From the sequence record NZ_CP029448.1: 64,000 bases of DNA, one strand, 5' to 3'. Positions 50,024 through 63,918 of this stretch are shown piece by piece. The notes under the pieces are model-generated. The model was not told where the DNA came from, searched no databases, and saw only the letters and a list, made by a program, of their open reading frames with translations. Source of the DNA: a plasmid. Position numbers and translations under genes: made by a program. Position 1 is the first letter of the stretch. Every line of letters starts with the position of its first letter.

Positions 50024-53000
50024 GGGGTCAGTTTGGATATAGAGAATTATTGTACGGCAAGCCTGTTTTTTGAACAGGCTTGCCTATAGCAATAGGGTGT
50101 ACCCTTATGCGATACCATTTTTGTTAAAAATTCCGCATCAAATAATTTATGAGGGAAACTATATGGCAAGGAGGCAGATTCTTTCTCTGTCGGAAAGAGA
50201 ATCATTACTGGCATTGCCAGATGATGAGTTAACGCTGACCCGAATGGCCTATTTCAGTGAGCATGATCTGGCACTTATCAGTGCTCACCGTAAACCTGCC
50301 AGCCGTTTTGGTTTTGCCGTCCTTCTTTGCTACCTGAAAAATGTCGGCTTTGCTCCGGATAAAAAAATCCCACCCTCTGATGCGCTGCTGAAGCATATCG
50401 CCAGCAGGCTAAAGCTTACCGGGGATCTCTGGCCTGCTTACCTTTCCGGCAGGGATACGACCCGGCGTGAGCATTTAACCGAACTGTACCGCTATCTTGG
50501 CGTAAAGGCGTTCACCGGCAAAATACAGCAGGACGGTATTACGCACCTGTTGTCGATGGCGACGCGCACCGATAAAGGTATTCTCCTGGCCGAAGAGTTA
50601 CTGGTCTGGCTCCGGCAGAACAACGTGATAATTCCCGCGATTGATGTCGTGGAGCGGACCTGTGCGGAGGCCATGGCTGGCGGAGATAAAATCGTATTTC
50701 AGACCCTGAATGCCCCGTTAACTCCGGCGCACCGGGATGCCCTGGATCGTTTACTTGAGTCATCAGATAATCAGCCTTCCAGGCTGACATGGCTTCTGCA
50801 ACCGCCGGGTAAAATCAATGGTAAGAACGTACTGCAACATCTTGATCGGCTCAGCAGCATTGAATCGCTGGCATTACCTGAAGGTATAGATCGTACCATT
50901 CACCAGAACCGGTTGCTGAAACTGGCGCGGGAAGGCCGAAAGATGAGTAGCCGGGATTTGACCCGATTTTCAGCAGCCCGCCGTCATGCGATCCTGGTCT
51001 GCGTGCTGGAAGAAGCCAGAGCCACACTGACAGACGAAGTGATTGAGCTGCATGAACGAATGCTGAACAGCCTTTTCAACAAAGCCAAAAGAACACAGGC
51101 TGAGCGCCTTCAGCAGACCGGAAAGCTGATCCAGTCCAAACTGAGGCAGTACATCGATGTTGGTCAGGCGCTGTCTGATGCCCGCGACTCCGGTGGCGAT
51201 CCATGGCTCGCAATAGAAAACATACTCCCGTGGCCTGAATTTGTCGCCAGTCTGGAGGAAACACGCCATCTCGCCAGAAAAAATAATTTTGACCCGCTGC
51301 ATATTATTACTGAGAAATACAGCACATTACGGAAATATGCCCCGCGCATGTTGTCCGCTTTACAGTTAGTCGCAACCCCGGCAGCACAACCTCTGGCTGA
51401 TGCGCTGGTTGTGATCAAGGATATGTACCGGAAGCAGTCACGTAAAGTTCCGGCGACTGCGCCGCTTGAGTTTGTCCCTGAAAGCTGGCGCAAGGTGGTG
51501 ATTACACCTGCGGGTATTGACCGGCAGTATTATGAATTTTGTGCGCTCAGCGAGCTTAAGGGAGCGTTGCGCTCCGGGGACATCTGGGTTAAAGGCTCAC
51601 GCCGCTACAAAAATTTTGATGATTACCTCATTCCCGAAAAGGACTTTGACAAACTCACACCGGCGCTGCCACTGCCCGTATCTGCTGATTATCATGAGTA
51701 CATTGCCAGCCGTATGACTCTGCTTCAGTCCAGACTTGAAGAGGTCAATGCCATGGCTGCCCTTGGTGAACTGCCCGATGTGGAAATATCCGACAAGGGC
51801 GTAAAAGTCTCTCCGCTGGATAACTGCGTTCCGGCACAGGTTTCACCGCTGGCAGAACTGGTTTACAGCATGCTACCGCGACCTAAAATCACGGAAATTC
51901 TCGACGAGGTAAACTGCTGGACGACGTTTACCCGTCATTTTTCGCATATAAAAAATGACATTACCCGTCCCGATACCCGCCAGCTCCTCACCACCATTCT
52001 TGCGGATGGCATCAATCTTGGCCTGACCAAAATGGCAGAAGCCTGCCCCGGGAGCACCAAATCATCACTCGAAGATATTCAGGCATGGTATACCCGCGAC
52101 GAAACCTATTCAGCCGCGCTTGCTGAGCTGGTAAATGCGCAGGGAAAAAGACCACTGGCGGCATTCTGGGGAGACGGAACAACGTCATCATCAGATGGAC
52201 AGAATTTCAGAACAGGCAGCTCAGGCCGCTACGCAGGGCAGGTTAACCCGAAATATGGGCAAGAACCTGGACGTCAGTTTTATACCCATATTTCGGATCA
52301 ATACAGCCCGTTTTACACCTGCATAATAAGTCGGGTCAGGGATTCAACCCATGTTCTCGATGGTTTGCTGTATCACGAAAGCGACCTGGAAATCAGGGAG
52401 CATTACACCGATACAGCTGGTTTCACCGATCATGTCTTTGCCCTGATGCATCTGCTAGGCTTTGCGTTCTGTCCACGAATCAGGGATCTCCACGACAAAA
52501 AGCTGTTTATCAAAGGGAAAGCAGACCAATACCCGGCGCTTCAGTCACTGATATCAACAACCAGCCTGAATCTGAAAGAGATCGAAATTCACTGGCGTGA
52601 AGTGCTGCGCCTGGCAACCTCGATAAAGCAGGGAACCGTGACGGCATCCCTGATGCTTAAAAAGCTTGCCAGCTACCCCAAGCAAAACGGACTTGCCAAA
52701 GCACTGAGGGAAATTGGCCGTATTGAACGAACGCTGTTTATGCTCGACTGGTTCCGCGATCCGGCACTTCGTCGGCGGGTACAGGCGGGACTGAATAAAG
52801 GAGAAGCCCGTAACGCGCTGGCGCGCGCGGTATTCCTGCACCGTCTGGGTGAAATCAGGGATCGTAAACCGGAAAATCAGAGCTACCGCGCCAGCGGACT
52901 GACGCTGCTGACGGCAGCTATCTCGCTGTGGAATACCATCTATATGGAAAGAGCGGTCGATACCCTGAAGCGTAAAGGGATGAAGATCAACGAGCGACTG

Positions 53001-53173
53001 CTGTCGCATTTGTCCCCGCTAGGCTGGGAACACATCAATCTTACAGGCGATTATATCTGGAAAAGCAACCGGATACCGGCTTCCGGTAAGTTTCGTCGGC
53101 TGCGGCCAGCTAAAGTAGGAAGGTCAAAAAACGACCTTAACGTACAATAATTTTCGATATCCAAATTGACCCC
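50024..53173 (+). mobile_element. IS-like Tn3-family element (IR-tnpA-IR, 3150 bp, no tnpR/res); apparently intact
   Basis: IRs at 50024-50061 and 53136-53173 (reverse complement). tnpA terminates inside the right IR. Confidence 0.8.
50163..53150 (+). CDS. tnpA: Tn3-family DDE transposase TnpA (996 aa)
   Basis: N-terminus MARRQILSLSERESLLALPDDELTL...RFGFAVLLCYLK is a typical Tn3 TnpA start. Full length with no frameshifts seen. Confidence 0.85.
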   Translation: MARRQILSLSERESLLALPDDELTLTRMAYFSEHDLALISAHRKPASRFGFAVLLCYLKNVGFAPDKKIPPSDALLKHIASRLKLTGDLWPAYLSGRDTTRREHLTELYRYLGVKAFTGKIQQDGITHLLSMATRTDKGILLAEELLVWLRQNNVIIPAIDVVERTCAEAMAGGDKIVFQTLNAPLTPAHRDALDRLLESSDNQPSRLTWLLQPPGKINGKNVLQHLDRLSSIESLALPEGIDRTIHQNRLLKLAREGRKMSSRDLTRFSAARRHAILVCVLEEARATLTDEVIELHERMLNSLFNKAKRTQAERLQQTGKLIQSKLRQYIDVGQALSDARDSGGDPWLAIENILPWPEFVASLEETRHLARKNNFDPLHIITEKYSTLRKYAPRMLSALQLVATPAAQPLADALVVIKDMYRKQSRKVPATAPLEFVPESWRKVVITPAGIDRQYYEFCALSELKGALRSGDIWVKGSRRYKNFDDYLIPEKDFDKLTPALPLPVSADYHEYIASRMTLLQSRLEEVNAMAALGELPDVEISDKGVKVSPLDNCVPAQVSPLAELVYSMLPRPKITEILDEVNCWTTFTRHFSHIKNDITRPDTRQLLTTILADGINLGLTKMAEACPGSTKSSLEDIQAWYTRDETYSAALAELVNAQGKRPLAAFWGDGTTSSSDGQNFRTGSSGRYAGQVNPKYGQEPGRQFYTHISDQYSPFYTCIISRVRDSTHVLDGLLYHESDLEIREHYTDTAGFTDHVFALMHLLGFAFCPRIRDLHDKKLFIKGKADQYPALQSLISTTSLNLKEIEIHWREVLRLATSIKQGTVTASLMLKKLASYPKQNGLAKALREIGRIERTLFMLDWFRDPALRRRVQAGLNKGEARNALARAVFLHRLGEIRDRKPENQSYRASGLTLLTAAISLWNTIYMERAVDTLKRKGMKINERLLSHLSPLGWEHINLTGDYIWKSNRIPASGKFRRLRPAKVGRSKNDLNVQ

Positions 53174-53473
53174 ATGCAGGGACACTGTCCCTACTGTCAT
53201 AAATTTGACCCGGTGCTGAAGCAGCTGGCCGGACAGTATGGCTTCTCCGTGTTCTCTTACACCATTGACGGACAGGGTGATGACGCGTTTCCGGAAGCGC
53301 TGCCGGCGCCTCCTGACGTGATGCAGACCTTTTTCCCCAATATCCCGGTGGCCACACCGACTACGTTTCTGGTGAACGTAAACACGCTGGCAGCGTACCC
53401 GATCCTGCAGGGCGCCACGGATGCACAGGGCTTTATGGCCAGAGTGGATACGGTATTTCAGATGATGCACTGA
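53165..53473 (+). pseudogene. trbB: 3' fragment of a second, diverged trbB (C-terminal 98 codons), abutting the Tn3-type right IR
   Basis: About 88% nt identity to 19335-19640. The encoded GHCPYCHKFDPVLKQL... has substitutions relative to the resident trbB. Confidence 0.85.
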
Positions 53474-53529
53474 GTCTCTGTTATATCCGGTCTTAGCAAG
53501 TGATTAAGGAAAATAGCCATGAACAAATA

Positions 53530-54297
53530 GGTAATGCTGCCAACTTGCTGATTTAGTGTATAATGGTGTTTTTGAGGTGCTCCAGTGGCTTCTGTTTCTA
53601 TCAGCTGTCCCTCCTGTTCAGCTACTGACGGGGTGGTGCGTAACGGCAAAAGCACTGCCGGACATCAGCGCTATCTCTGCTCTCACTGCCGTAAAACATG
53701 GCAACTGCAGTTCACTTACACCGCTTCTCAACCCGGTACGCACCAGAAAATCATTGATATGGCCATGAATGGTGTTGGATGCCGGGCAACCGCCCGCATT
53801 ATGGGCGTTGGCCTCAACACGATTTTACGTCACTTAAAAAACTCAGGCCGCAGTCGGTAACCTCGCGCATACAGCCGGGCAGTGATGTGATTGTCTGCGC
53901 TGAAATGGACGAACAGTGGGGCTACGTCGGTGCTAAATCACGTCAGCGCTGGCTGTTTTACGCGTATGACAGGATACGCAGGGTGGTGGTAGCCCACGTC
54001 TTCGGTGAACGCACTCTGGCCACACTGGAGCGTCTTCTGAGCCTGCTGTCGGCCTTTGAGGTCGTGGTATGGATGACGGATGGCTGACCGCTGTATGAAT
54101 CCCGCCTGAAGGGAAAGCTGCACGTTATCAGCAAGCGTTACACTCAGCGCATTGAGCGACATAACCTGAATCTGAGACAACATCTGGCAAGGCTGGGACG
54201 GAAGTCCCTGTCGTTCTCCAAATCGGTGGAGCTGCATGACAAAGTCATCGGGCACTATCTGAACATAAAACACTATCAGTAAATTGGAGTCATTACC
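53530..54297 (+). mobile_element. IS1 copy 2 (768 bp); insB carries a TGG-to-TGA nonsense change
   Basis: Both IRs present. InsA intact (53585..53860). InsB reading frame stops at 54085-54087 (..WMTDG*), where the normal InsB reads WMTDGWPLY. Confidence 0.85.
53585..53860 (+). CDS. insA: IS1 InsA
   Basis: [40 protein letters not shown]... Confidence 0.9.
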
Positions 54298-54585: not shown

Positions 54586-56109
54586 ATGAACGACAAAATC
54601 AGTCAGGACACGATCAACAAAGCCCTGTGGGCCGCGTGTGATACGTTCCGTGGCACCATCAGTGCTGATACCTATAAAGACTTTATCCTTACCATGCTGT
54701 TCCTTAAGTACATTTCGGATGTCTGGCAGGATCATTACGATGAATATAAAAAACAGTATGGTGATGCACCAGAACTCATTGAAGCCATGATGGCCAACGA
54801 GCGTTTTGTACTGCCAAAAAGTGCCAGCTTTTATGCGCTGTACGAACGCCGCCATGAGCCGGGTAACGGTGAGCGTATCGATCAGGCTCTGCATGCGATT
54901 GAAGAAGCTAATGGCACCAAACTGAAAGACGCCGGGAAAAGCGTGTTCCAGGATATTTCGTTTAACACCGATCGCCTAGGTGAAGAAAAACAGAAGAACA
55001 CCATCCTGCGTCAGCTGCTGGAAGACTTTGCCGGTCAAGATCTTAACCTGAAGCCGAGCCGTGTCGGTACGCTGGACGTTATCGGTAATGCCTACGAATA
55101 TCTGATCAAAAACTTTGCTGCCAGCGGTGGGCAGAAAGCCGGGGAGTTCTATACCCCGCCGGAAGTTTCGGACCTGATTGCAGAACTGCTCGATCCGCAA
55201 CCGGGTGATACCATCTGCGATCCAGCCTGTGGTTCCGGTTCATTATTGATGAAGTGTGGGCGTAAAATTGTCTCCGGGCATGATAGTCGTAACTATGCAT
55301 TGTTCGGTCAGGAAGCGATCGGTTCTACGTGGTCGCTGGCGAAAATGAATATGTTCCTGCACGGGGAAGACAACCATAAAATCGAGTGGGGCGATACCAT
55401 TCGCAACCCGAAGCTGCTCGATAAAAATGGCGACCTGATGCTGTTTGATATCGTGACCGCTAACCCACCGTTCAGCCTCGATAAGTGGGGCCATGACGAG
55501 GCCGAGAACGATAAGTTTGGCCGTTTTCGTCGCGGTGTACCGCCGAAGACTAAAGGAGATTACGCTTTTATCTCGCATATGATCGAAACCCTGAAACCGG
55601 GAACTGGCCGTATGGGCGTAGTTGTGCCACACGGTGTGCTTTTCCGTGGCTCCAGCGAAGGTAAAATTCGCCAGAAACTGATCGACGAAAATTTGCTGGA
55701 TGCGGTAATTGGTCTGCCGGAAAAACTGTTCTACGGTACGGGGATTCCGGCTGCGATTCTGATTTTCAAAAAGCAGAAAGTTGATGACAAGGTGCTGTTT
55801 ATCGATGCCAGCCGTGAATTCAAGGCAGGTAAAAACCAGAACCAGCTTAGCGAAGAAAACATTAAGAAAATCGTCAAGACCTACCGTGATGGCGATAACG
55901 TCGAGAAATATGCCTACCTTGCCAGCCTGAAAGAGATTCAGGACAACGACTATAACCTCAATATCCCGCGCTATGTCGATACCTTTGAAGAAGAGGAAGA
56001 GATCGATTTGCTGGCGGTACGTGCTGAGCGTGAGCAACTGAAAGCGGAATTGGCGAAGCTGGAAACGGAGATGGCTGGATATTTGAAGGAGTTGGGTTAT
56101 GATTCCTAA
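54586..56109 (+). CDS. hsdM: Type I restriction-modification methyltransferase subunit HsdM
   Basis: 507 aa; GGQKAGEFYTPPEV, DPACGSGSLL and NPPF motifs. Confidence 0.9.
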   Translation: MNDKISQDTINKALWAACDTFRGTISADTYKDFILTMLFLKYISDVWQDHYDEYKKQYGDAPELIEAMMANERFVLPKSASFYALYERRHEPGNGERIDQALHAIEEANGTKLKDAGKSVFQDISFNTDRLGEEKQKNTILRQLLEDFAGQDLNLKPSRVGTLDVIGNAYEYLIKNFAASGGQKAGEFYTPPEVSDLIAELLDPQPGDTICDPACGSGSLLMKCGRKIVSGHDSRNYALFGQEAIGSTWSLAKMNMFLHGEDNHKIEWGDTIRNPKLLDKNGDLMLFDIVTANPPFSLDKWGHDEAENDKFGRFRRGVPPKTKGDYAFISHMIETLKPGTGRMGVVVPHGVLFRGSSEGKIRQKLIDENLLDAVIGLPEKLFYGTGIPAAILIFKKQKVDDKVLFIDASREFKAGKNQNQLSEENIKKIVKTYRDGDNVEKYAYLASLKEIQDNDYNLNIPRYVDTFEEEEEIDLLAVRAEREQLKAELAKLETEMAGYLKELGYDS

Positions 56110-57325
56110 GGGGTGGTCATCTCAGAAACTCTCATCGGTTGCGTCGATAATCGATTGCAAACACAGGACTCCTGAGTACGTTAAATCGGGAATACCACTT
56201 GTCTCACCGGGGACGATAAAATGGGGAGCCTTAGATCTGATTTCACCTGTAAAAAGAGTTACAGAAGAAGAATATCGCTCTCTGATGGATCACTGTGTTG
56301 TTGAACAAGGTGATTTGGTTATGAGTCGTAACCAGTCTGTCGGTGTTGTTAGCTATGTGGATTCCAAAAAGCCATTTGTATTAGGGCAAGACACTGTCTT
56401 AATTAAAGCAATCCATGCAGATTGGCGGTTTATTTACTACACATTACAATCAGATTTAGTCCAGCGACAGATAGCAAAAAGTGCAGGTGGTTCTACCTTT
56501 TCTAGAATTAACCTTTCTGATATTAGAGCGTTAAACATAAAAACTCCTGCTATTTGTGAACAAGATAAAATATCTCAAATTCTGACCGCCTGGGATAAGG
56601 CAATTTCGGTGACGGAAAGCCTTCTCGCCAACAGTCAACAGCAGAAAAAAGCCCTGATGCAGCAATTGCTTACCGGGAATAAACGGTTGCTGGATGAGAA
56701 TGGGGTGAGGTTTAGTGGGGAGTGGAAAATTACTAAACTAATACAAATGGGCAAAGTTGTATCCGGTGGAACACCTGATACAAACATGGCCATGTATTGG
56801 GAAGGCGATATTCTATGGCTTACCCCAACTGATGTTACTGCATTAACGGGTAGGTTCGTTAGCAATACTAGTAGAAAAATTACTCCTGCGGGATTACTAA
56901 ATAGCTCAGCTGTTCTTTTGCCAAAAGGTAGTTTGATGGTATGTACAAGAGCTACCATTGGTGCTTTAGCAATTTCGACATCGGAAATTTGTACCAATCA
57001 AGGTTTTAAAAACATCATTCCGAATGAAGGGTTTAATATCGAATTTATTTATTATTTGTTGCAAATGAACACAAATGAGATGATCAAAAAATCATCTGGC
57101 TCAACATTTTTAGAACTTTCCAAGAAAGATTTTGAAACTTTAAGCTTTTCTTGCCCATTTATTAAAGAGCAACAAAAAATCGCCGCCGTGCTGTCCGCTG
57201 CTGACACCGAAATCTCCACACTTGAGAAAAAACTCGCCTGCCTGAAAGACGAGAAGAAAGCCTTGATGCAGCAACTGCTGACCGGGAAACGTCGGGTGAA
57301 AGTGGATGAGGCGGTTGCCGTATGA
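56099..57325 (+). CDS. hsdS: Type I R-M specificity subunit HsdS (two target-recognition domains)
   Basis: 408 aa. Conserved repeat KKALMQQLLTG(N/K)(K/R)R occurs centrally and at the C-terminus. Overlaps the hsdM stop. Confidence 0.85.
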   Translation: MIPKGWSSQKLSSVASIIDCKHRTPEYVKSGIPLVSPGTIKWGALDLISPVKRVTEEEYRSLMDHCVVEQGDLVMSRNQSVGVVSYVDSKKPFVLGQDTVLIKAIHADWRFIYYTLQSDLVQRQIAKSAGGSTFSRINLSDIRALNIKTPAICEQDKISQILTAWDKAISVTESLLANSQQQKKALMQQLLTGNKRLLDENGVRFSGEWKITKLIQMGKVVSGGTPDTNMAMYWEGDILWLTPTDVTALTGRFVSNTSRKITPAGLLNSSAVLLPKGSLMVCTRATIGALAISTSEICTNQGFKNIIPNEGFNIEFIYYLLQMNTNEMIKKSSGSTFLELSKKDFETLSFSCPFIKEQQKIAAVLSAADTEISTLEKKLACLKDEKKALMQQLLTGKRRVKVDEAVAV

Positions 57326-58005
57326 AACTGACGAAAAGCGGTCCACTGACTGACCGGGAAATCGACTGGCTGGAAGAAATATTAATGAAGTATGGAATGG
57401 ATGATTCTGTACTCTGTTTCTCTGAGCTGGATGGATTGCTGACGGCGATTGTCTCTGGCCCGAATACGATTTCCCCTAATACCTGGCTCAGTGCTATCTG
57501 GGGGCGAGGTGATTACCACCCTCGCTGGACCACTGAAAAAGAGATGACGCGTTTTGTGGGGCTGTGTTTTCAGCATATGAACGATATCGCTGGCTGCCTG
57601 TATGAGGCCCCTGAACAGTTTGAACCGATTTTCAATGGACGTGAGGTGAAGGGGAAGACATATACCATCGTCGAAGAGTGGTGTTTCGGGTATATGAAAG
57701 GCCGGTCTCTGGATGACTGGTCAGCCTTGCCAGAGTCCTTACGTCCCTCGCTGGAGGCGATAGCCCTTCATGGTATTGAAAAGAACTTCCCAGTGGTTGA
57801 GAAAATGTCACCTGTTCAATTTGAACAGAGTATTACTCTCATTCAGCCTGCGGCACTGGCGCTTTACCAGCACTGGTTGTCGGTGAGAATGTCAGAGGCA
57901 TCATCCCGGCCTGTTCCCGTGAAGGGGGCAGAAAAACTGCCCGGTCGTAATGACCCGTGTCAGTGTGGCAGTGGTAAAAAATTTAAAAAGTGCTGCCTGC
58001 ACTGA
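57322..58005 (+). CDS. YecA-like protein: UPF0149 (YgfB/YecA) domain plus C-terminal SEC-C metal-binding motif
   Basis: ..EWCFGYM.. and ..LEAIALHG.. match YecA. C-terminus GRNDPCQCGSGKKFKKCCLH is a SecA-type MBD. Confidence 0.75.
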   Translation: MKLTKSGPLTDREIDWLEEILMKYGMDDSVLCFSELDGLLTAIVSGPNTISPNTWLSAIWGRGDYHPRWTTEKEMTRFVGLCFQHMNDIAGCLYEAPEQFEPIFNGREVKGKTYTIVEEWCFGYMKGRSLDDWSALPESLRPSLEAIALHGIEKNFPVVEKMSPVQFEQSITLIQPAALALYQHWLSVRMSEASSRPVPVKGAEKLPGRNDPCQCGSGKKFKKCCLH

Positions 58006-58027
58006 CAAAGCGGAAGGGGGCTTGCTC

Positions 58028-59812
58028 ATGGCAGTGAACAATCTGGATCGTTCCCGGTGGTACATGGGAAATGTTCTCTGGTTCGGAGGCTACAACAGCA
58101 AAACGGATCGGGAGAATAACTTTGGCTTTCTCTTATCAGAGAATGGTAATGAGCTGTTTTTTCATAAGAATGAGATAAGCCGGAACTATACACCCGCTGA
58201 CAATGCACCGGTGCTGTTCAGGGAAGGTACAGGTAAAAATGGTAAGCCTACGGCTTTTAATGTTCACATTCTTGATAAAACAGATGAGGAGACGGCTGAG
58301 CTCCTTATTGAATATCTCCGGGCTATTATTGAGGAGGGCGTTGATTTCGCTCGTTGGCGTTATCGTGACTGCGTTATTAATTTCCTCACTCAGTCCTTTG
58401 GCGAAAGGGCTATAATTCGGTTAGTTACCAGTGATATAGCTGCTACAAAAGTCTTACCGCTATTTTTAAAATCACGTAACTACGATAACCAGTTTGCACT
58501 TTTCGCATCTGATAAGAATTTTGATGATTTGACCGCACAACAAATATCTCCTGCGGTCATGCCTTCGTCATTTATCGATAATAACATTGATCAATTCGCT
58601 GTTTGGGTGAAAAGATGTTCTGCGGCTACGGATTGCCAGGGGGCTTCAACATCGGACATCATCAATGAATTACTCAGCCATATATCTATAAGTGCTATTC
58701 TCTACCTGGCTTTTTACGATTGTATAAGTAGCGAGCGGATTCTTGAGCATCGGCATGATGATATAGAGAATTTTGTTCGACATAGTTTCACGAAAAATAA
58801 AATGGATATACAACCATTTGTCCGTGATGCCTATCAGCAGAAATTCTCATCGAGAGAGCAATTTTATAAACATTCCGTGATTAGTCCTTTTATCAATACG
58901 TATTTGATTAAACAGAAGATGTTCAGAAAAGATTTCAGTTTTGTTAATGATATCGAGTCGAATACTGAAATTGCTTCTGATCCTGAATACTTCATTCTGA
59001 GTAAATTGTTACCGTTGCTTGGGCGCAACGATGAACAGTCCGTTCTGAGTATTATTCTGCATGAGATATGGCACGGAGTCTTGTCGGGTAAAATTCCGGT
59101 AAATCATCCTTCTGTTTTCAAATTGTTCCCACAATGTAGTTCATTACAAATTCGTTTCCCAAGTTTAGAATTATCCTGTGAGGCGTTTCACTGGAATGCA
59201 AAACAACCTGACGGAACGATAGAGAAAAAATTCCTTTGTCGTTCGAAAATCTGCCATGATCCGCAGGTATTACCCGACCTCAGTCGGGATTACATCGACT
59301 TCACTATTTATGACTGGCTTGCCCACTATGGCATGACCTATCTGATTGCAGGCGAACCTTCTAAGCGGGATTTCCCAATTAAACTGGCTGGGTATTTCAA
59401 TCGTATCAGAGAATTACATTCCCGCTTGCATTGCCGAAGTTGTGGGGTGCTGATGGTTCCAGATATGAAATATGCTCGTGTGGAAGTCAGCGTCTGGGAT
59501 ACAAAGTCGAAAGGATTTGTGAAAAAACCTTTCCAGGCCGCGTATCGCCTGACCGTCTTTAAATGTGCCAGTCATTCGTGCGAACAGTTTGGTATCGGGC
59601 ATTACATTAATCACTGTATTGGTTACAAATGCAGCGAAATAATTGACGCCAGGGATTTGCATGAAAAATGTTCAGAAGGACGATTTATTTGTGCATCCTG
59701 TGGTTCCTGCTGTACGACGCATCAGGAGAAATTTGGTAATGTAAACAAGGGCGAAACAGAACAGGTCAAGTACAATCGCCTTTATCGGGACTCGCCGTTC
59801 TTTTCATCATAA
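58028..59812 (+). CDS. 594-aa protein with an N-terminal cold-shock (CSD/OB-fold) domain and a Cys-rich C-terminal region; function unknown
   Basis: GNVLWFGGYNSKTDRENNFGFLLSENGNELFFHKNEIS....GKPTAFNVH follows the CspA pattern. C-terminal C..C/H clusters. Start at 58028 with SD ggaaggggg. Confidence 0.6.
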   Translation: MAVNNLDRSRWYMGNVLWFGGYNSKTDRENNFGFLLSENGNELFFHKNEISRNYTPADNAPVLFREGTGKNGKPTAFNVHILDKTDEETAELLIEYLRAIIEEGVDFARWRYRDCVINFLTQSFGERAIIRLVTSDIAATKVLPLFLKSRNYDNQFALFASDKNFDDLTAQQISPAVMPSSFIDNNIDQFAVWVKRCSAATDCQGASTSDIINELLSHISISAILYLAFYDCISSERILEHRHDDIENFVRHSFTKNKMDIQPFVRDAYQQKFSSREQFYKHSVISPFINTYLIKQKMFRKDFSFVNDIESNTEIASDPEYFILSKLLPLLGRNDEQSVLSIILHEIWHGVLSGKIPVNHPSVFKLFPQCSSLQIRFPSLELSCEAFHWNAKQPDGTIEKKFLCRSKICHDPQVLPDLSRDYIDFTIYDWLAHYGMTYLIAGEPSKRDFPIKLAGYFNRIRELHSRLHCRSCGVLMVPDMKYARVEVSVWDTKSKGFVKKPFQAAYRLTVFKCASHSCEQFGIGHYINHCIGYKCSEIIDARDLHEKCSEGRFICASCGSCCTTHQEKFGNVNKGETEQVKYNRLYRDSPFFSS

Positions 59813-59881
59813 GTCTTCGTTCATTTTGAGTATGTCCGTAAGGACATACAGTTTCACCTCTTAGCCAAGAAGGATTACCGG

Positions 59882-62800
59882 GTGGATAAGCACTACCAAC
59901 CTAAATTCCAGGAAGAATACAGCGCCAAAATTCCGGCACTGACGTTACTGACCAGCCTCGGCTGGACGTTTTTATCTCCGAAACAGATTATGGATTACCG
60001 GGGCTATAAACAGGATGAGGTGGTGCTGCGTCCGGTTCTGCGTGAAGAGCTGTCGAAGCGTTCCTTTATGGCGGGTGGCAAAACCTGCCAGTTATCGGAA
60101 AAAGCACTGGCTAACCTGATATCACAGGTCTGTTCTCCGGCGCTGAATGAAGGGCTGCTCAAAGCCAATGAACGGATGTATAACCATCTGCTCTACGGTA
60201 TCGCCGTCACGGAGTTTGTCGATGGCAAGAAGGTCAACCCCACCATTGCGCTGATCGACTGGGAACATCCGGAAAATAACCAGTTCCATTTTACTGAAGA
60301 ATTTACGGTATTGCGGTCAGGTGGTGTTGAAACCCGGAGGCCAGATATTGTCTGCTTTGTTAATGGTATCCCGCTGGCTGTTATTGAAGCGAAAAGCCCG
60401 GCTGGTCATGGCAAGAAAGGGCCAACCATTGACGAGGGGATATCCCAGAGTATCCGCAACCAGTTCAACGATGAAATCCCGCAGCTGTTTGTCTACAGCC
60501 AGTTATTACTTTCGATTAACGGTCATGACGGGCGCTACGGTACCTGCCATACGCCAATGAAATTCTGGGCGGCATGGCGCGAAGAAGATATTACCGATCC
60601 GCAGATGTATGCGCTGCGCAACCATCCTTTATCGACTGAACAAATTCATGCGTTGTTTGATCATCGTCCTTCAGTCGATCTCAAATGGTATCAACAGTTA
60701 ATCGATGGGGGGGAACTGGCAGTCAGCGGGCAGGATAAGCTGCTCATCAGTCTGCTTTCACCGGAACGTCTGCTGGAGATGACCCGCTTCTTCACCCTGT
60801 TTGATAAAAAAACCGGAAAAATTGTTGCCCGCTATCAGCAGGTGTTCGGGATAAAAAGACTGCTGGAACGCATCAGTACCCGCAGACCAGACGGGGGCAG
60901 GGAAGGTGGGGTGATCTGGCATACCACGGGGTCAGGTAAATCTTACACCATGGTATTCCTCAGCAAGGCGCTGATTCTTCATGACAGCCTGAAGCAGTGT
61001 CGTATTGTGGTGGTGACGGACCGCGTGGACCTTGAAGGGCAGCTCAGCGGCACTTTTGTTTCTGGTGGCGAACTGGCAGGGAAGGATGATAAGGCCAAAG
61101 CGATGGCGACCTCAGGTCAGAAGCTGGCACAGCAGATTGGCTCTGGTAAAGAACGTATAATCTTTACCCTTATCCAGAAATTTAACTCAGCGACAAAATT
61201 GCCTGAATGCGTCAACACCAGCCCCGACATCATCGTTCTGATTGATGAAGGACACCGTAGCCAGGGTGGTGAGAACCATGTGCGAATGAAACTGGCACTG
61301 CCGAACGCCGCCTTTGTAGCATTTACTGGTACGCCATTGCTAAAAGAAGATAAGACCACCAATAAATTCGGACCGATTGTCCACGCTTATACCATGCAGC
61401 GAGCGGTAGAAGATAAAGCCGTTACACCTTTGCTGTATGAAGAACGTATTCCCGACCTTGAGGTTAACGATCGGGCAATAGATGCCTGGTTTGATCGTAT
61501 TACCGATGGGTTAAGCGAAGCGCAAAAAGCCGACCTTAAGCGTAAATATGCCCGTAAAGGTGAGGTTTATAGTGCAGATGATCGCATCCGTCTGATCGCA
61601 CTCGATATCGCCACGCACTTCTCGAAGAATATTGATGAGGGACTGAAAGGCCAGCTTGCCTGCGACAGCAAGATTTCCGCCATCAAATATAAAAAGTATC
61701 TTGATGAAGCCGGGTTGTTTGAGTCAGCTGTAGTTATCAGCCCGCCGGATACCCGGGAAGGGAATACTGAGGTGGATGAAAGCAAACTGCCGGAAGTGAC
61801 GAAATGGTGGAAAGATAACGTCGGCACGCAGGATGAGTCTGTGTATACCCGCAATATCATCAGTCGTTTCGATACCGATGAGAAGCTCAAATTGCTGATA
61901 GTCGTTGATAAACTGCTCACCGGGTTTGATGAGCCGAAGAATACCGTGCTGTATATCGACAAGCCGCTTAAGTCCCACAACCTTATCCAGGCGATTGCGC
62001 GGGTGAACCGACTGCATCCACTAAAAAAGTTCGGTCTGCTGATTGATTATCGCGGTATTCTGGCTGAGCTGGACACGACTATCGGCAAATATCAGGACCT
62101 CGCCTCCCGAACTCAGGGCGGATACGATATCAAAGATATTGACGGGCTGTACAGCGCCATGAGCTCTGAATACAAGCGTCTACCGCATCTGTATAACCAG
62201 CTGTGGGCCATATTTGCCGGTGTTAAAAACAAAAATGATACTGAGCAGTTACGTGCGGTACTGGTGCCTAAAATGGAAGAACGTGACGGAGAGATGGTCG
62301 ATATCCATCAGAAAACCCGTGATGATTTCTTCGAGGCGTTAACGGCCTTTGCCGGATGCCTGAAAGTGGCACTGCAGTCCGCCACCTTCTTCACCGACAA
62401 GAGCTTTACGGAACAAGACCGAAACCTCTATAAAGAAACCGTAAAACAGATGTCCAGCCTGCGCCAGTGGGCGATGCAGGTAAGTGGAGAGCAGGTCAAT
62501 TATGACGACTACGCTGAGCAGGTGAAAAAATTGCTGGATAAGCATGTCACCGGCGTTGAGGTTCGTGAACCGGATGGCGTGTATGAAGTCGGTAAAATGG
62601 GCAAGAGCGAAAAACCCGAAGAGTGGGATAACAATAAAACCCGCAATGAAACCGACATCATTAAAACCCGCGTGACGAAGATGATTGAGCAGGAATTGCG
62701 TGATGACCCGTATGCTCAGGAGGCATTTTCAAAACTCCTGCGTATGGCTATCGAAGAGGCTGAAAAACTGTTTGACCATCCGCTGAAACAGTACCTTTTG

Positions 62801-63166
62801 TTCCGTGAATTTGAAGAACAGGTTGAAGCCCGTAAGCTCAGCGATATCCCGGATGCACTGGCGGTAAACAAGCATGCTCAGGCGTATTACGGTGTATTTA
62901 AAAAAGAGCTACCTGAGGTTTTTGCGGTAAACGACGTTCAGGTGCAGGATAAGTGGACGAAGCTGGCTTTTGAAGTGGACAACATTATCGTCAAAGCGGT
63001 GGCAGAAAACTCCCTGAACCCCCAGGACATTGAGAAAGTCGTTAAGACAAGTCTGCTACCACTGCTGTTTACGGCCTGCCGGGAAATTGGTGCCGGAATG
63101 AATCAGGTTAACCGTATTGTTGAAACCATCATCCAGATACTGCGCGTTGGTTTGATGAAATCATGA
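59882..63166 (+). CDS. hsdR: Type I R-M restriction subunit HsdR
   Basis: 1094 aa. Helicase motifs TTGSGKSYTM and DEGHRSQ. GTG start with SD aagaagga. Confidence 0.9.
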   Translation: MDKHYQPKFQEEYSAKIPALTLLTSLGWTFLSPKQIMDYRGYKQDEVVLRPVLREELSKRSFMAGGKTCQLSEKALANLISQVCSPALNEGLLKANERMYNHLLYGIAVTEFVDGKKVNPTIALIDWEHPENNQFHFTEEFTVLRSGGVETRRPDIVCFVNGIPLAVIEAKSPAGHGKKGPTIDEGISQSIRNQFNDEIPQLFVYSQLLLSINGHDGRYGTCHTPMKFWAAWREEDITDPQMYALRNHPLSTEQIHALFDHRPSVDLKWYQQLIDGGELAVSGQDKLLISLLSPERLLEMTRFFTLFDKKTGKIVARYQQVFGIKRLLERISTRRPDGGREGGVIWHTTGSGKSYTMVFLSKALILHDSLKQCRIVVVTDRVDLEGQLSGTFVSGGELAGKDDKAKAMATSGQKLAQQIGSGKERIIFTLIQKFNSATKLPECVNTSPDIIVLIDEGHRSQGGENHVRMKLALPNAAFVAFTGTPLLKEDKTTNKFGPIVHAYTMQRAVEDKAVTPLLYEERIPDLEVNDRAIDAWFDRITDGLSEAQKADLKRKYARKGEVYSADDRIRLIALDIATHFSKNIDEGLKGQLACDSKISAIKYKKYLDEAGLFESAVVISPPDTREGNTEVDESKLPEVTKWWKDNVGTQDESVYTRNIISRFDTDEKLKLLIVVDKLLTGFDEPKNTVLYIDKPLKSHNLIQAIARVNRLHPLKKFGLLIDYRGILAELDTTIGKYQDLASRTQGGYDIKDIDGLYSAMSSEYKRLPHLYNQLWAIFAGVKNKNDTEQLRAVLVPKMEERDGEMVDIHQKTRDDFFEALTAFAGCLKVALQSATFFTDKSFTEQDRNLYKETVKQMSSLRQWAMQVSGEQVNYDDYAEQVKKLLDKHVTGVEVREPDGVYEVGKMGKSEKPEEWDNNKTRNETDIIKTRVTKMIEQELRDDPYAQEAFSKLLRMAIEEAEKLFDHPLKQYLLFREFEEQVEARKLSDIPDALAVNKHAQAYYGVFKKELPEVFAVNDVQVQDKWTKLAFEVDNIIVKAVAENSLNPQDIEKVVKTSLLPLLFTACREIGAGMNQVNRIVETIIQILRVGLMKS

Positions 63167-63918
63167 GTGAAAAAGAATCGCCATCAATGAAAGCGTTACG
63201 CATTGTCTATGGTGATGAGGTCATCGTCGTACAGTGTGTTCCGCGTCAGGTCGTAAAGGGCAGGGTGCTCATCAAGGTGCATCCGGACTGCCGGGTTATT
63301 GTCTCTGTACCTCCAGAAACACCGGAGCACGAGCTGTTGTCTGCGCTGAAAAAAAGAGGGCGCTGGATATACCAGCAACTGCGTGATTTCAGGGAGCAAC
63401 AGACACACATTGTTCCGCGTCAGTATGTCAGCGGAGAAAGCCATTATTATCTCGGTAAGCAATATCAGTTGAAAGTGACAGAAGACGCTACTGTGCCGCA
63501 ACGAGTGAAAATGTTGCGTGGGCGTCTGGAAGTGACTGTCAGACACAAATCGGCAGAAAAGATTAAAGCCTTGCTGGCTGAATGGTATCGGGAACGTGCC
63601 AGAGATGTTTTTCAGCGCAGGCTTGATTTACTGATTCCGCAGACCCTTTGGGTCAGTGAGCGTCCTCCGATACGTCTGCGGGCGATGCAAACTCAATGGG
63701 GCAACTGTTCAGCAAAAGGCTGTCTGACCCTGAATCCATGGCTGGTTAAGGCATCCTCAGAATGTATCGATTATGTTTTGCTACATGAGTTATGCCATGT
63801 GGCTGAGCACAACCACAGCGAGAAGTTTTACCGTCTGATGGGGCAGGTTATGCCGGGCTGGGAAAAGGTTAAGAAGCGACTGGATGGTATGGCTGGGATG
63901 TTGTTGGCAGATATGTAG
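63163..63918 (+). CDS. DUF45/YgjP-like zinc metallopeptidase (HExxH) commonly linked to hsdR
   Basis: ..LLHELCHVAEHNHSEKFY..; overlaps the hsdR stop. Confidence 0.75.
   Translation: MSEKESPSMKALRIVYGDEVIVVQCVPRQVVKGRVLIKVHPDCRVIVSVPPETPEHELLSALKKRGRWIYQQLRDFREQQTHIVPRQYVSGESHYYLGKQYQLKVTEDATVPQRVKMLRGRLEVTVRHKSAEKIKALLAEWYRERARDVFQRRLDLLIPQTLWVSERPPIRLRAMQTQWGNCSAKGCLTLNPWLVKASSECIDYVLLHELCHVAEHNHSEKFYRLMGQVMPGWEKVKKRLDGMAGMLLADM

Follow-up and report, generated by a model that had tools for sequence, protein, structure and literature searches.

Introduction

Type I restriction-modification (R-M) operons can hold an additional gene in the interval between hsdS and hsdR. In the type IC locus EcoprrI this gene encodes the anticodon nuclease PrrC, which is triggered by inhibition of EcoPrrI and offers a precedent for a second line of defence (EcoSal review, PMC12707154). 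Here we describe a locus at positions 54,586 to 63,918 of a 64,000-nucleotide stretch of plasmid DNA (sequence record NZ_CP029448.1; the whole stretch is called the window below) in which the same slot holds two genes: one encodes a 227-amino-acid (227-aa) paralogue of the chaperone YecA, and the other a 594-aa protein that combines a cold-shock domain (CSD) with a helical region and a Cys-rich domain. Judged by its sequence, the locus is a type I R-M operon whose hsdS-hsdR slot is occupied by two non-R-M genes.

Other described systems bear on these genes. The PDC models derive from a screen by "guilt-by-embedding", which looked for genes that lie within BREX, DISARM or type I R-M systems; seven systems were confirmed, and another 145 phage-defence candidates stand as predictions (Payne et al., bioRxiv 10.1101/2024.01.29.577857). 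Housekeeping YecA (AscA) binds SecB and the ribosome through its metal-binding tail and prevents aggregation, acting as a holdase (bioRxiv 10.1101/2020.07.21.215244). Pipolins, which insert at a tRNA-Leu gene between pgsA and yecA, frequently carry "Type 1 RM, PDC-S12" as cargo and exchange it with plasmids (PMC11551731).

Compared with these systems, the present locus is only partly familiar. PADLOC returned no PrrC model for either accessory protein, in agreement with a preliminary description of this DNA, prepared from the letters and reading frames, which had held that the insert is neither PrrC nor RloC. The same description took the architecture to be undescribed: this stands for the 594-aa protein, which is in none of the libraries searched, but not for the YecA-like gene, which PADLOC already lists as PDC-S12.

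Results

The two accessory genes are separable

Judged by the distribution of the two accessory genes among related operons, the YecA-like gene belongs to the regular make-up of this R-M family, and the 594-aa gene is a separately mobile, single-gene cassette. The operon is laid out as follows.

54586..56109, + strand: hsdM, type I methyltransferase subunit, 507 aa (Pfam N6_Mtase 3.2e-107, HsdM_N 2.4e-22)
56099..57325, + strand: hsdS, specificity subunit, 408 aa (Pfam Methylase_S in two stretches; PADLOC Specificity_I 6.9e-216, full length)
57322..58005, + strand: YecA-like gene, 227 aa, UPF0149 domain and SecA-type SEC-C metal-binding tail
58006..59899, no strand: inserted segment, 1,894 bp, absent from operons that lack the CSD gene (CSD-less operons); includes the first 18 nt of hsdR
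58028..59812, + strand: 594-aa gene, cold-shock domain, helical region and Cys-rich domain; candidate stand-alone defence gene
59882..63166, + strand: hsdR, restriction/translocase subunit, 1094 aa, GTG start (HSDR_N 1.8e-46, SWI2_SNF2 2.5e-75, T1R_D3-like 1.7e-24)
63163..63918, + strand: gene for a YgjP-like/DUF45 (M48-type) zinc metallopeptidase, 251 aa (Pfam YgjP-like PF01863, 4.4e-59)

Among 5,426 complete Escherichia coli genomes, this hsdR family occurs in 541. The YecA-like gene is present in at least 418 of these 541 (a megablast count, to be read as a lower bound) and the 594-aa gene in 199, leaving at least 219 genomes with the YecA-like gene alone. Intact CSD-less operons with the order hsdM-hsdS-yecA-like-hsdR-M48 were found in E. 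coli E1620, in enterotoxigenic E. coli (ETEC) H10407 and on one metagenome contig. When the window is aligned with two CSD-less operons (L030 and L034), homology ends at 58005, the stop of the yecA-like gene, and resumes at 59900, 18 nt into hsdR. The 1,894-bp segment replaces ~70 bp, and the first six codons of HsdR differ in consequence. The GC content within the segment is 0.37-0.44, compared with ~0.50 in hsdM and hsdR.

Synonymous divergence (dS) points in the same direction. Relative to the window, dS in operon L002 is 0.05 for the 594-aa gene and 0.33 for hsdR; in operon L035 it is 0.33 for the 594-aa gene, 0.89 for hsdR and 1.9 for the yecA-like gene. The far lower dS of the 594-aa gene than of its flanks fits a cassette that moved recently between diverged operons. 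HsdM exists in forms of 507 aa and 528 aa, each of which is found both with and without the CSD gene. These forms, together with the several-fold differences in dS between adjacent genes, indicate that the operon is a recombination mosaic. Both accessory genes are under purifying selection, with ratios of nonsynonymous to synonymous divergence (dN/dS) of 0.07-0.19 for the YecA-like gene and 0.11-0.23 for the 594-aa gene, excepting one near-identical pair, in which substitutions are too few for the ratio to carry information.

The separation is also evident outside E. coli. In Citrobacter braakii (L008, 9294-9975) the YecA-like gene is frameshifted and broken into three frames, and the 594-aa gene is intact. 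Homologues of the 594-aa protein at 59% identity or less have no YecA or type I R-M relative within the flanks examined. Each gene is therefore common without the other, which is not what a two-gene toxin/chaperone or toxin/antitoxin cassette with obligate co-occurrence would show. The preliminary description had treated the two genes as a single two-gene insert, a view that has to be given up: the genes occur apart, and the 594-aa gene lies on its own 1,894-bp segment. It had also asked whether the pair recurs in other R-M loci or defence islands. The two genes co-occur within this R-M family, in which the YecA clade always follows hsdS; distant 594-aa homologues occur elsewhere without YecA.

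One further E. coli operon has been disrupted. In strain KMi006 (L031, 8248-9280), IS1 has eliminated hsdM, hsdS, the yecA-like gene and the greater part of the 594-aa gene, of which the 3'-terminal 210 bp remain before hsdR.

The operon is mobile

DNA identical to positions 57000-60200 of the window is present in at least 125 plasmids, mostly of Klebsiella, and ~97% identical DNA is present in 199 E. coli chromosomes; the arrangement is therefore not due to chance. Of 366 plasmid matches to this interval, 351 are from Klebsiella and 357 are on plasmids predicted to be conjugative. The automated PGAP annotation names the two genes "YecA family protein" and "cold shock domain-containing protein". 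In plasmid pR46-270, which is identical over the interval, the operon lies between finO and repA.

On E. coli chromosomes, in strains WCHEC050613 and ETEC H10407 the operon lies inside an island with a tyrosine recombinase, in the company of a PD-(D/E)XK nuclease, a restriction endonuclease, an anti-phage dCTP deaminase, DUF262 proteins and Mza. The WCHEC050613 island additionally encodes a DNA polymerase, and this layout is that of a pipolin. We conclude that the operon is mobile and circulates on Klebsiella IncF plasmids and E. coli pipolin-type islands.

A YecA paralogue tied to hsdS

The 227-aa protein is a YecA paralogue with the two-domain architecture proposed in the preliminary description: a UPF0149 domain (2.6e-29; PF03695, 103 bits against a cut-off of 25) is followed by a SecA-type SEC-C tail (9.5e-08; PF02810, 32 bits against a cut-off of 20.4), and the NCBIfam YecA model NF007704 scores 352 bits (cut-off 149). 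Identity to E. coli-type housekeeping YecA is 58%, and the tail GRNDPCxCGSGKKFKxCCLH is kept, with its CxCx8CC/H metal-binding motif. The homologues fall into two sets: a clade, mostly of 227 aa, whose members share 69-90% identity with the window protein, and the housekeeping YecA proteins (221-224 aa), at no more than 60%. Every examined member of the 227-aa clade sits directly 3' of hsdS, whether the 594-aa gene is present (the window and L035) or absent (L030, L034 and L038). With its separate clade and different neighbourhood, the gene is not an orthologue of housekeeping yecA. In Providencia (L032 and L033, 6738-9723), an hsdS remnant and the YecA-like gene are followed by a GmrSD-type (DUF262/DUF1524) gene; the slot 3' of the YecA paralogue appears to accept different defence genes.

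The 227-aa protein matches the PADLOC model for PDC-S12 (PDLC04917) over its full length at 2e-97. In a comparison that took in the proteins P0173, P0141 and P0109, the model gives housekeeping YecA higher scores (354-360 bits) than the embedded paralogue (323-331 bits). Because of this preference, the "PDC-S12" calls that genome surveys make in enterobacteria probably report, for the most part, housekeeping yecA.

Six "phage" records (H81-H86) contain a yecA of the housekeeping type (57-59% identity), located within the first 60-700 nt of the record. These copies are most likely the host flank of prophage-derived sequence from the tRNA-Leu/yecA attachment site, and the same origin probably explains phrog_24700. 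Phage hits to YecA were accordingly rejected as viral genes: they are housekeeping yecA at the edge of prophage-derived records.

The 594-aa protein combines a cold-shock domain with a conserved Cys-rich module

The 594-aa protein consists of the following parts.

58055..58273, + strand: cold-shock (OB-fold) domain, residues ~10-82
58280..59107, + strand: all-helical middle region, residues ~85-360, from the secondary structure predicted by AlphaFold2 (AF2)
59129..59722, + strand: Cys-rich core, residues 368-565

In Pfam the protein has a CSD match below the cut-off and nothing else, and no NCBIfam, PADLOC or PHROGs model matches it. The cold-shock domain nevertheless has a five-stranded OB fold with RNP1-like and RNP2-like aromatic motifs: it keeps the nucleic-acid-binding motifs WF, FGF and FxH and has a family-specific insertion, GGxNxKTxREN. 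It is a genuine single-strand-binding OB domain. The N-terminal half of the helical middle region varies in length among homologues and is expanded in relatives of 865-1012 aa; the region may be a repeat scaffold of adjustable length. By eye, ~30-aa repeats of the form GIP.S..P..LI..HV...G can be made out at residues ~170-470 of an 865-aa Aeromonas relative (P0014).

In the Cys-rich core, across 37 very divergent members, the conserved Cys and His residues are C384, C404, C409, C469, C472, C513, C518, H529, C530, C535, C548, C555, C558, C561 and C562, enough for approximately four metal sites of the Cys4 type. The Cys motifs quoted in the preliminary description are all present in the translation. 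Only D540 and R542 (in an IDSRD motif), P478 and F511 are invariant without being obvious metal ligands.

The AF2 model is confident, with a mean predicted local distance difference test score (pLDDT) of 86.6 for the full protein and 89.2 for residues 255-594. When the C-terminal module was compared with the Protein Data Bank (PDB) using Foldseek, the best E value was 0.74 and no counterpart was found, neither a metabolic enzyme, the outcome that the preliminary description had set as a possible refutation, nor any other protein. The Cys-rich domain has no detectable sequence or structure similarity to known nuclease or enzyme folds (HNH, PD-(D/E)xK and others).

Several candidate relationships were considered and set aside. 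Sequence profiles of the core matched only zinc ribbons and, marginally, the C-terminal domain (CTD) of DNA polymerase alpha (3FLO, E 0.009), and Pfam zf-DNA_Pol matched one member at E 0.045; these matches were not taken as homology. The preliminary description had seen a weak HEPN-like R-x4-6-H spacing, which does not hold: neither H464 nor H468 is constant within the family or conserved across the superfamily, and the PDB comparison recovered no HEPN fold. A phage or viral origin also found no support, with no relative of the 594-aa protein in IMG/VR or in 50,697 phage records.

The family itself is large. A first homologue search returned 83 clusters, with identities to the window protein of 84-99% in Enterobacteriaceae, 57-59% in Erwinia, 38-52% in Vibrio and ~30% in marine metagenomes. 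A profile of the Cys-rich module retrieved 811 cluster representatives at E<=1e-3, of which 414 are at <=1e-10; the clusters were formed at 50% identity, and the superfamily therefore comprises at least 811 of them. Of nine distant relatives scanned, five have a CSD near the N-terminus (three of the five score below the Pfam gathering score), and these five include four giants of 1034-1279 aa. The conserved module of the 594-aa family is absent from every library searched (PDB, Pfam, NCBIfam, PADLOC and PHROGs).

Three giant Cys-rich relatives (P0262, P0279 and P0259; 1062-1279 aa) have one or two N-terminal CSDs. In P0262 and P0279 a segment resembling HARP, the fork-binding domain of the SMARCAL1 type, scores just below the Pfam cut-off immediately before the Cys-rich core; this segment hints at DNA-junction recognition.

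Homologues of the 594-aa protein often keep company with defence genes

To place the 594-aa family in its genomic setting, we surveyed ~15 lineages chosen by availability, a convenience sample in which about two thirds are defence-linked. Several homologues accompany BREX genes. In Tritonibacter and Cognatishimia the homologue lies 3' of brxC-pglX-pglZ-brxL; in metagenome-assembled genomes (MAGs) of Oleiphilus and Pseudohongiella it lies directly upstream of pglZ-brxL on the same strand, on contigs that end before the pglX position; and in one metagenome lineage it follows brxC-pglX and precedes dynamin-like GTPases.

Other homologues have other neighbours. The Vibrio lentus homologue lies between an Mrr-type nuclease and a giant NERD-kinase-helicase protein, and a giant relative adjoins a NERD protein and a DNA methylase. 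In Pseudomonas the gene is near a PD-(D/E)XK/DUF2357 protein, a PDC-M26A match and a Leo-like GTPase, and in a Calditrichaeota MAG it is a few genes away from a UvrD/GajB-like helicase. V. metschnikovii carries it beside a Fic protein in the variable region of an integrative and conjugative element (ICE), and V. cholerae beside an HsdR fragment in an integrase island. The preliminary description would have been refuted by a housekeeping operon that is merely adjacent to the R-M genes. Instead, the linkage of both accessory genes to defence loci is supported.

Operon anatomy and the spacer before hsdR

The core genes have the features expected of a type I system: HsdM with N6_Mtase and HsdM_N, HsdS with two target-recognition regions, and HsdR with an N-terminal nuclease region and a superfamily 2 (SF2) translocase. 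The TIGR00497 hsdM model scores 285 bits against a cut-off of 243, and HsdR further matches ResIII and TIGR00348 (460 bits). HsdS is the variable part among operons that are otherwise 97-98% identical, with HsdS amino acid identities of 38-69%. The genes are tightly packed. hsdM and hsdS overlap by 11 nt, the hsdS stop and the YecA-like start by 4 nt (ATGA), and the hsdR stop and the peptidase gene by 4 nt; the co-oriented YecA-like and 594-aa genes are separated by 22 nt. The peptidase has its HExxH motif, HELCH, visible in the translation, and its gene is kept 3' of hsdR in every intact operon seen. In these respects the preliminary description was accurate: its six open reading frames (ORFs), overlaps and domain calls agree in coordinates and in Pfam, NCBIfam and PADLOC matches, the peptidase call after hsdR included, and the two accessory genes do lie, packed and co-oriented, in the prrC slot, the first overlapping the hsdS stop.

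A Shine-Dalgarno-like GGAAGGGGG 7 nt before 58028 favours this position as the start of the 594-aa gene, as does an alignment of homologues at their N-termini; in some PGAP records the annotated form has 620 aa and begins at 57950. A promoter scan gave 13 promoter-like sites where 15.7 are expected by chance, and hence no excess.

The spacer between the 594-aa gene and hsdR has a predicted structure of its own.

59830..59886, + strand: spacer RNA structure before hsdR, an 8-bp hairpin and a second stem, from a folding calculation

The hairpin at 59830-59849 has a perfect 8-bp stem, and the second stem, at 59853-59886, pairs the Shine-Dalgarno region and the GTG start codon of hsdR. The minimum free energy (MFE) of the fold is -22.7 kcal/mol (z -2.65), and 2 of 200 shuffled sequences fold as well. 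CSD-less operons have a different spacer before hsdR and an ATG start. The calculated fold hints that hsdR may be under translational control in the insert-bearing form.

Upstream of the operon (50070-54087), a 1026-aa ORF reads by eye, from the translation only, like a Tn3-family transposase; by the same kind of reading, a 99-aa ORF at 53174-53473 resembles a thioredoxin-fold fragment of a conjugation protein, and ORFs at 53585-54087 resemble IS1 insA and insB.

Discussion

A proposed reading: two independent modules in one operon

We have shown above that the two genes in the hsdS-hsdR slot have separate distributions and separate histories. This raises the question of what each contributes. 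The reading that we prefer, and to which we give about an even chance of being correct, is that a mobile type I R-M operon carries two independent modules: an accessory chaperone of the R-M system and an autonomous candidate factor against phages or other mobile genetic elements (MGEs). The YecA paralogue, its translation coupled to that of hsdS, would be a built-in accessory of this R-M family, serving the Hsd subunits as their own holdase or assembly factor, or controlling the timing of restriction. We do not think that it is a stand-alone defence gene. The 594-aa protein would be an autonomous anti-phage (or anti-MGE) protein: its CSD may capture single-stranded RNA or DNA made during infection, and the metal-rich C-terminal domain may then act on the captured nucleic acid by cleavage or sequestration, with D540, R542 and H529 as candidate functional residues. 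We infer these functional steps for both modules, and a 594-aa protein that cleaves, sequesters or signals would in each case be compatible with the data.

A number of observations weigh against this picture. The literature that we searched holds no experiment on either gene, and PDC-S12 is a prediction only. The context survey is not a statistical defence-score analysis, and it includes Erwinia, where the homologue lies among regulators in non-defence surroundings, as well as Comamonas and a Deltaproteobacteria MAG with an IS91-type transposase, where the neighbours are uninformative. The Cys-rich domain, lacking a recognisable catalytic fold, may do no more than bind nucleic acid or protein. 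One of eight enterobacterial loci (that of C. braakii) has a frameshifted YecA-like gene, which is therefore dispensable at least there. Finally, the repeated co-orientation of the 594-aa family inside methyltransferase-based systems could mean functional dependence on them, contradicting autonomy.

Such dependence would take its clearest form if the 594-aa protein were, much as the preliminary description had suggested, a latent effector that monitors the host type I R-M or BREX system and fires when a phage anti-restriction factor disables it, with the YecA paralogue as a possible tether or chaperone. The gene is in the prrC position, PrrC itself is embedded in a type IC locus and responds to inhibition of EcoPrrI (PMC12707154), and in ~6-7 of the ~15 lineages the gene lies within a type I R-M or BREX operon, or immediately next to one, on the same strand. 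We nevertheless consider this unlikely: there is no R-M or BREX system within 8-10 kb of the gene in Erwinia, the V. metschnikovii ICE, V. lentus or Pseudomonas, the protein has neither PrrC/RloC homology nor an ABC ATPase, and the YecA gene is absent from all non-enterobacterial contexts. Moreover, embedding in BREX and in type I R-M is known for many defence genes that act autonomously (Payne et al., bioRxiv 10.1101/2024.01.29.577857) and therefore does not imply dependence. An obligate pair, in which the YecA-like and 594-aa proteins work together, for example as chaperone or antitoxin with toxin, would account for their tight packing and co-orientation across a 22-nt gap and for their co-occurrence in 199 E. 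coli genomes and at least 125 plasmids. It is very improbable and was rejected on the distribution of the two genes, which largely refutes it: the YecA-like gene stands alone in at least 219 E. coli genomes, all homologues at 59% identity or less lack a YecA-like neighbour, the 594-aa gene lies on a separate segment with a different divergence history, and in C. braakii it is intact beside a frameshifted YecA-like gene.

Cold-shock domains are classic modules for RNA chaperoning and antitermination, and the 594-aa protein might accordingly be an RNA chaperone, antiterminator or translational regulator of the long genes downstream of it (hsdR, pglZ-brxL) and no immune effector. Its gene is just upstream of hsdR or pglZ in the window, L011 and L015, and in a predicted fold of the spacer the start of hsdR is base-paired. 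However, the gene is last in the operon, after brxL, in Tritonibacter and Cognatishimia; it is also found as lone cargo; operons without it are intact and common; and a length of 600-1280 aa with a conserved metal-rich domain of ~200 aa would be unusual for a simple regulator, all of which makes this explanation quite improbable. We put equally little weight on the proposal that one or both genes serve the establishment of a plasmid, ICE or island, by protecting or processing incoming single-stranded DNA or by delaying restriction, rather than defence against phages. The 357 conjugative plasmids among 366 hits, the ICE variable region and the integrase islands are in line with it, a CSD can bind single-stranded DNA, and an R-M system entering a new cell would benefit from a chaperone that holds back the assembly of HsdR. 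On the other side, marine bacteria have chromosomal BREX-embedded copies with no conjugation genes in view, and the 594-aa protein is found in none of 50,697 phage records nor in viral contigs. Leading-region anti-defence genes usually sit elsewhere than in the finO-repA interval, which is where pR46-270 carries the operon.

The reading with two independent modules can be taken further. In this bolder form, which is possible but in our judgement doubtful, the 594-aa protein is the founding, experimentally accessible member of a superfamily of at least 811 clusters of single-protein immune factors, each combining a CSD with a new metal-rich fold. Their targets would be single-stranded RNA or DNA of phages, or replication intermediates, and their mechanism would be unprecedented, with metal sites that might hold Fe-S clusters rather than zinc; separately, the YecA paralogue would be a dedicated ribosome- and SecB-binding chaperone that controls type I R-M assembly or the timing of restriction.

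The reach of the operon gives these questions practical weight. Widespread conjugative plasmids of Klebsiella pneumoniae carry it, as do ~10% of complete E. coli genomes, ~3.7% in the form with the 594-aa gene; given this wide spread, any effect on phages or incoming DNA bears on phage therapy and on plasmid spread. The 594-aa family is large and conserved, its members lie time and again within BREX and type I R-M operons, and it is a concrete new anti-phage candidate; nature also supplies comparators: O145:H28 strains and Klebsiella plasmids with the 594-aa gene, and ETEC H10407 without it. The chaperone paralogue in the operon, in turn, offers a handle on how type I R-M assembly or restriction is controlled upon entry into a new host.

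Comparison with known systems

We found no paper that connects type I R-M, YecA and a cold-shock protein, and none on the 594-aa family. The main texts of the DefensePredictor study and of Payne et al. mention neither protein, "PDC-S12" does not occur in the supplements of Payne et al. in text form, and a survey of type I R-M gene arrangements (NAR 2025) holds nothing specific to this operon.

Among described systems, PrrC in EcoprrI, together with RloC, is closest in layout: an extra gene lies between hsdS and hsdR, with a precedent for second-line defence (PMC12707154). The window proteins differ in having no sequence relationship to PrrC or RloC and no ABC-ATPase or anticodon-nuclease domain by PADLOC and Pfam; in addition, the slot here holds two unrelated genes, and the 594-aa gene is not restricted to type I R-M loci. 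Embedded defence genes such as those of the BrxU/GmrSD type resemble the 594-aa family in being single, co-oriented genes in or next to BREX and type I R-M, but the 594-aa protein has no DUF262/DUF1524 or other known nuclease domain. With Lin28-type proteins, which join a CSD to zinc knuckles, there is analogy only: the Cys-rich part here is a multi-site domain of ~200 aa, not a set of CCHC knuckles, and it has no detectable similarity to Lin28.

The YecA paralogue has two counterparts. It shares with housekeeping YecA/AscA the two-domain architecture, 58% identity and a near-identical metal-binding tail, but its clade is found only directly after hsdS, whereas housekeeping yecA lies beside the pipolin tRNA-Leu site. 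It also matches PDC-S12 of Payne et al. over its full length and is embedded in type I R-M like the PDC seeds; PDC-S12, however, is a single-gene prediction whose model does not define the embedded clade, and the 594-aa neighbour is in no PADLOC model. Thus an accessory or defence gene in the hsdS-hsdR slot is already known from PrrC and from embedded systems, and the YecA-like part of the present locus is already catalogued as a predicted candidate.

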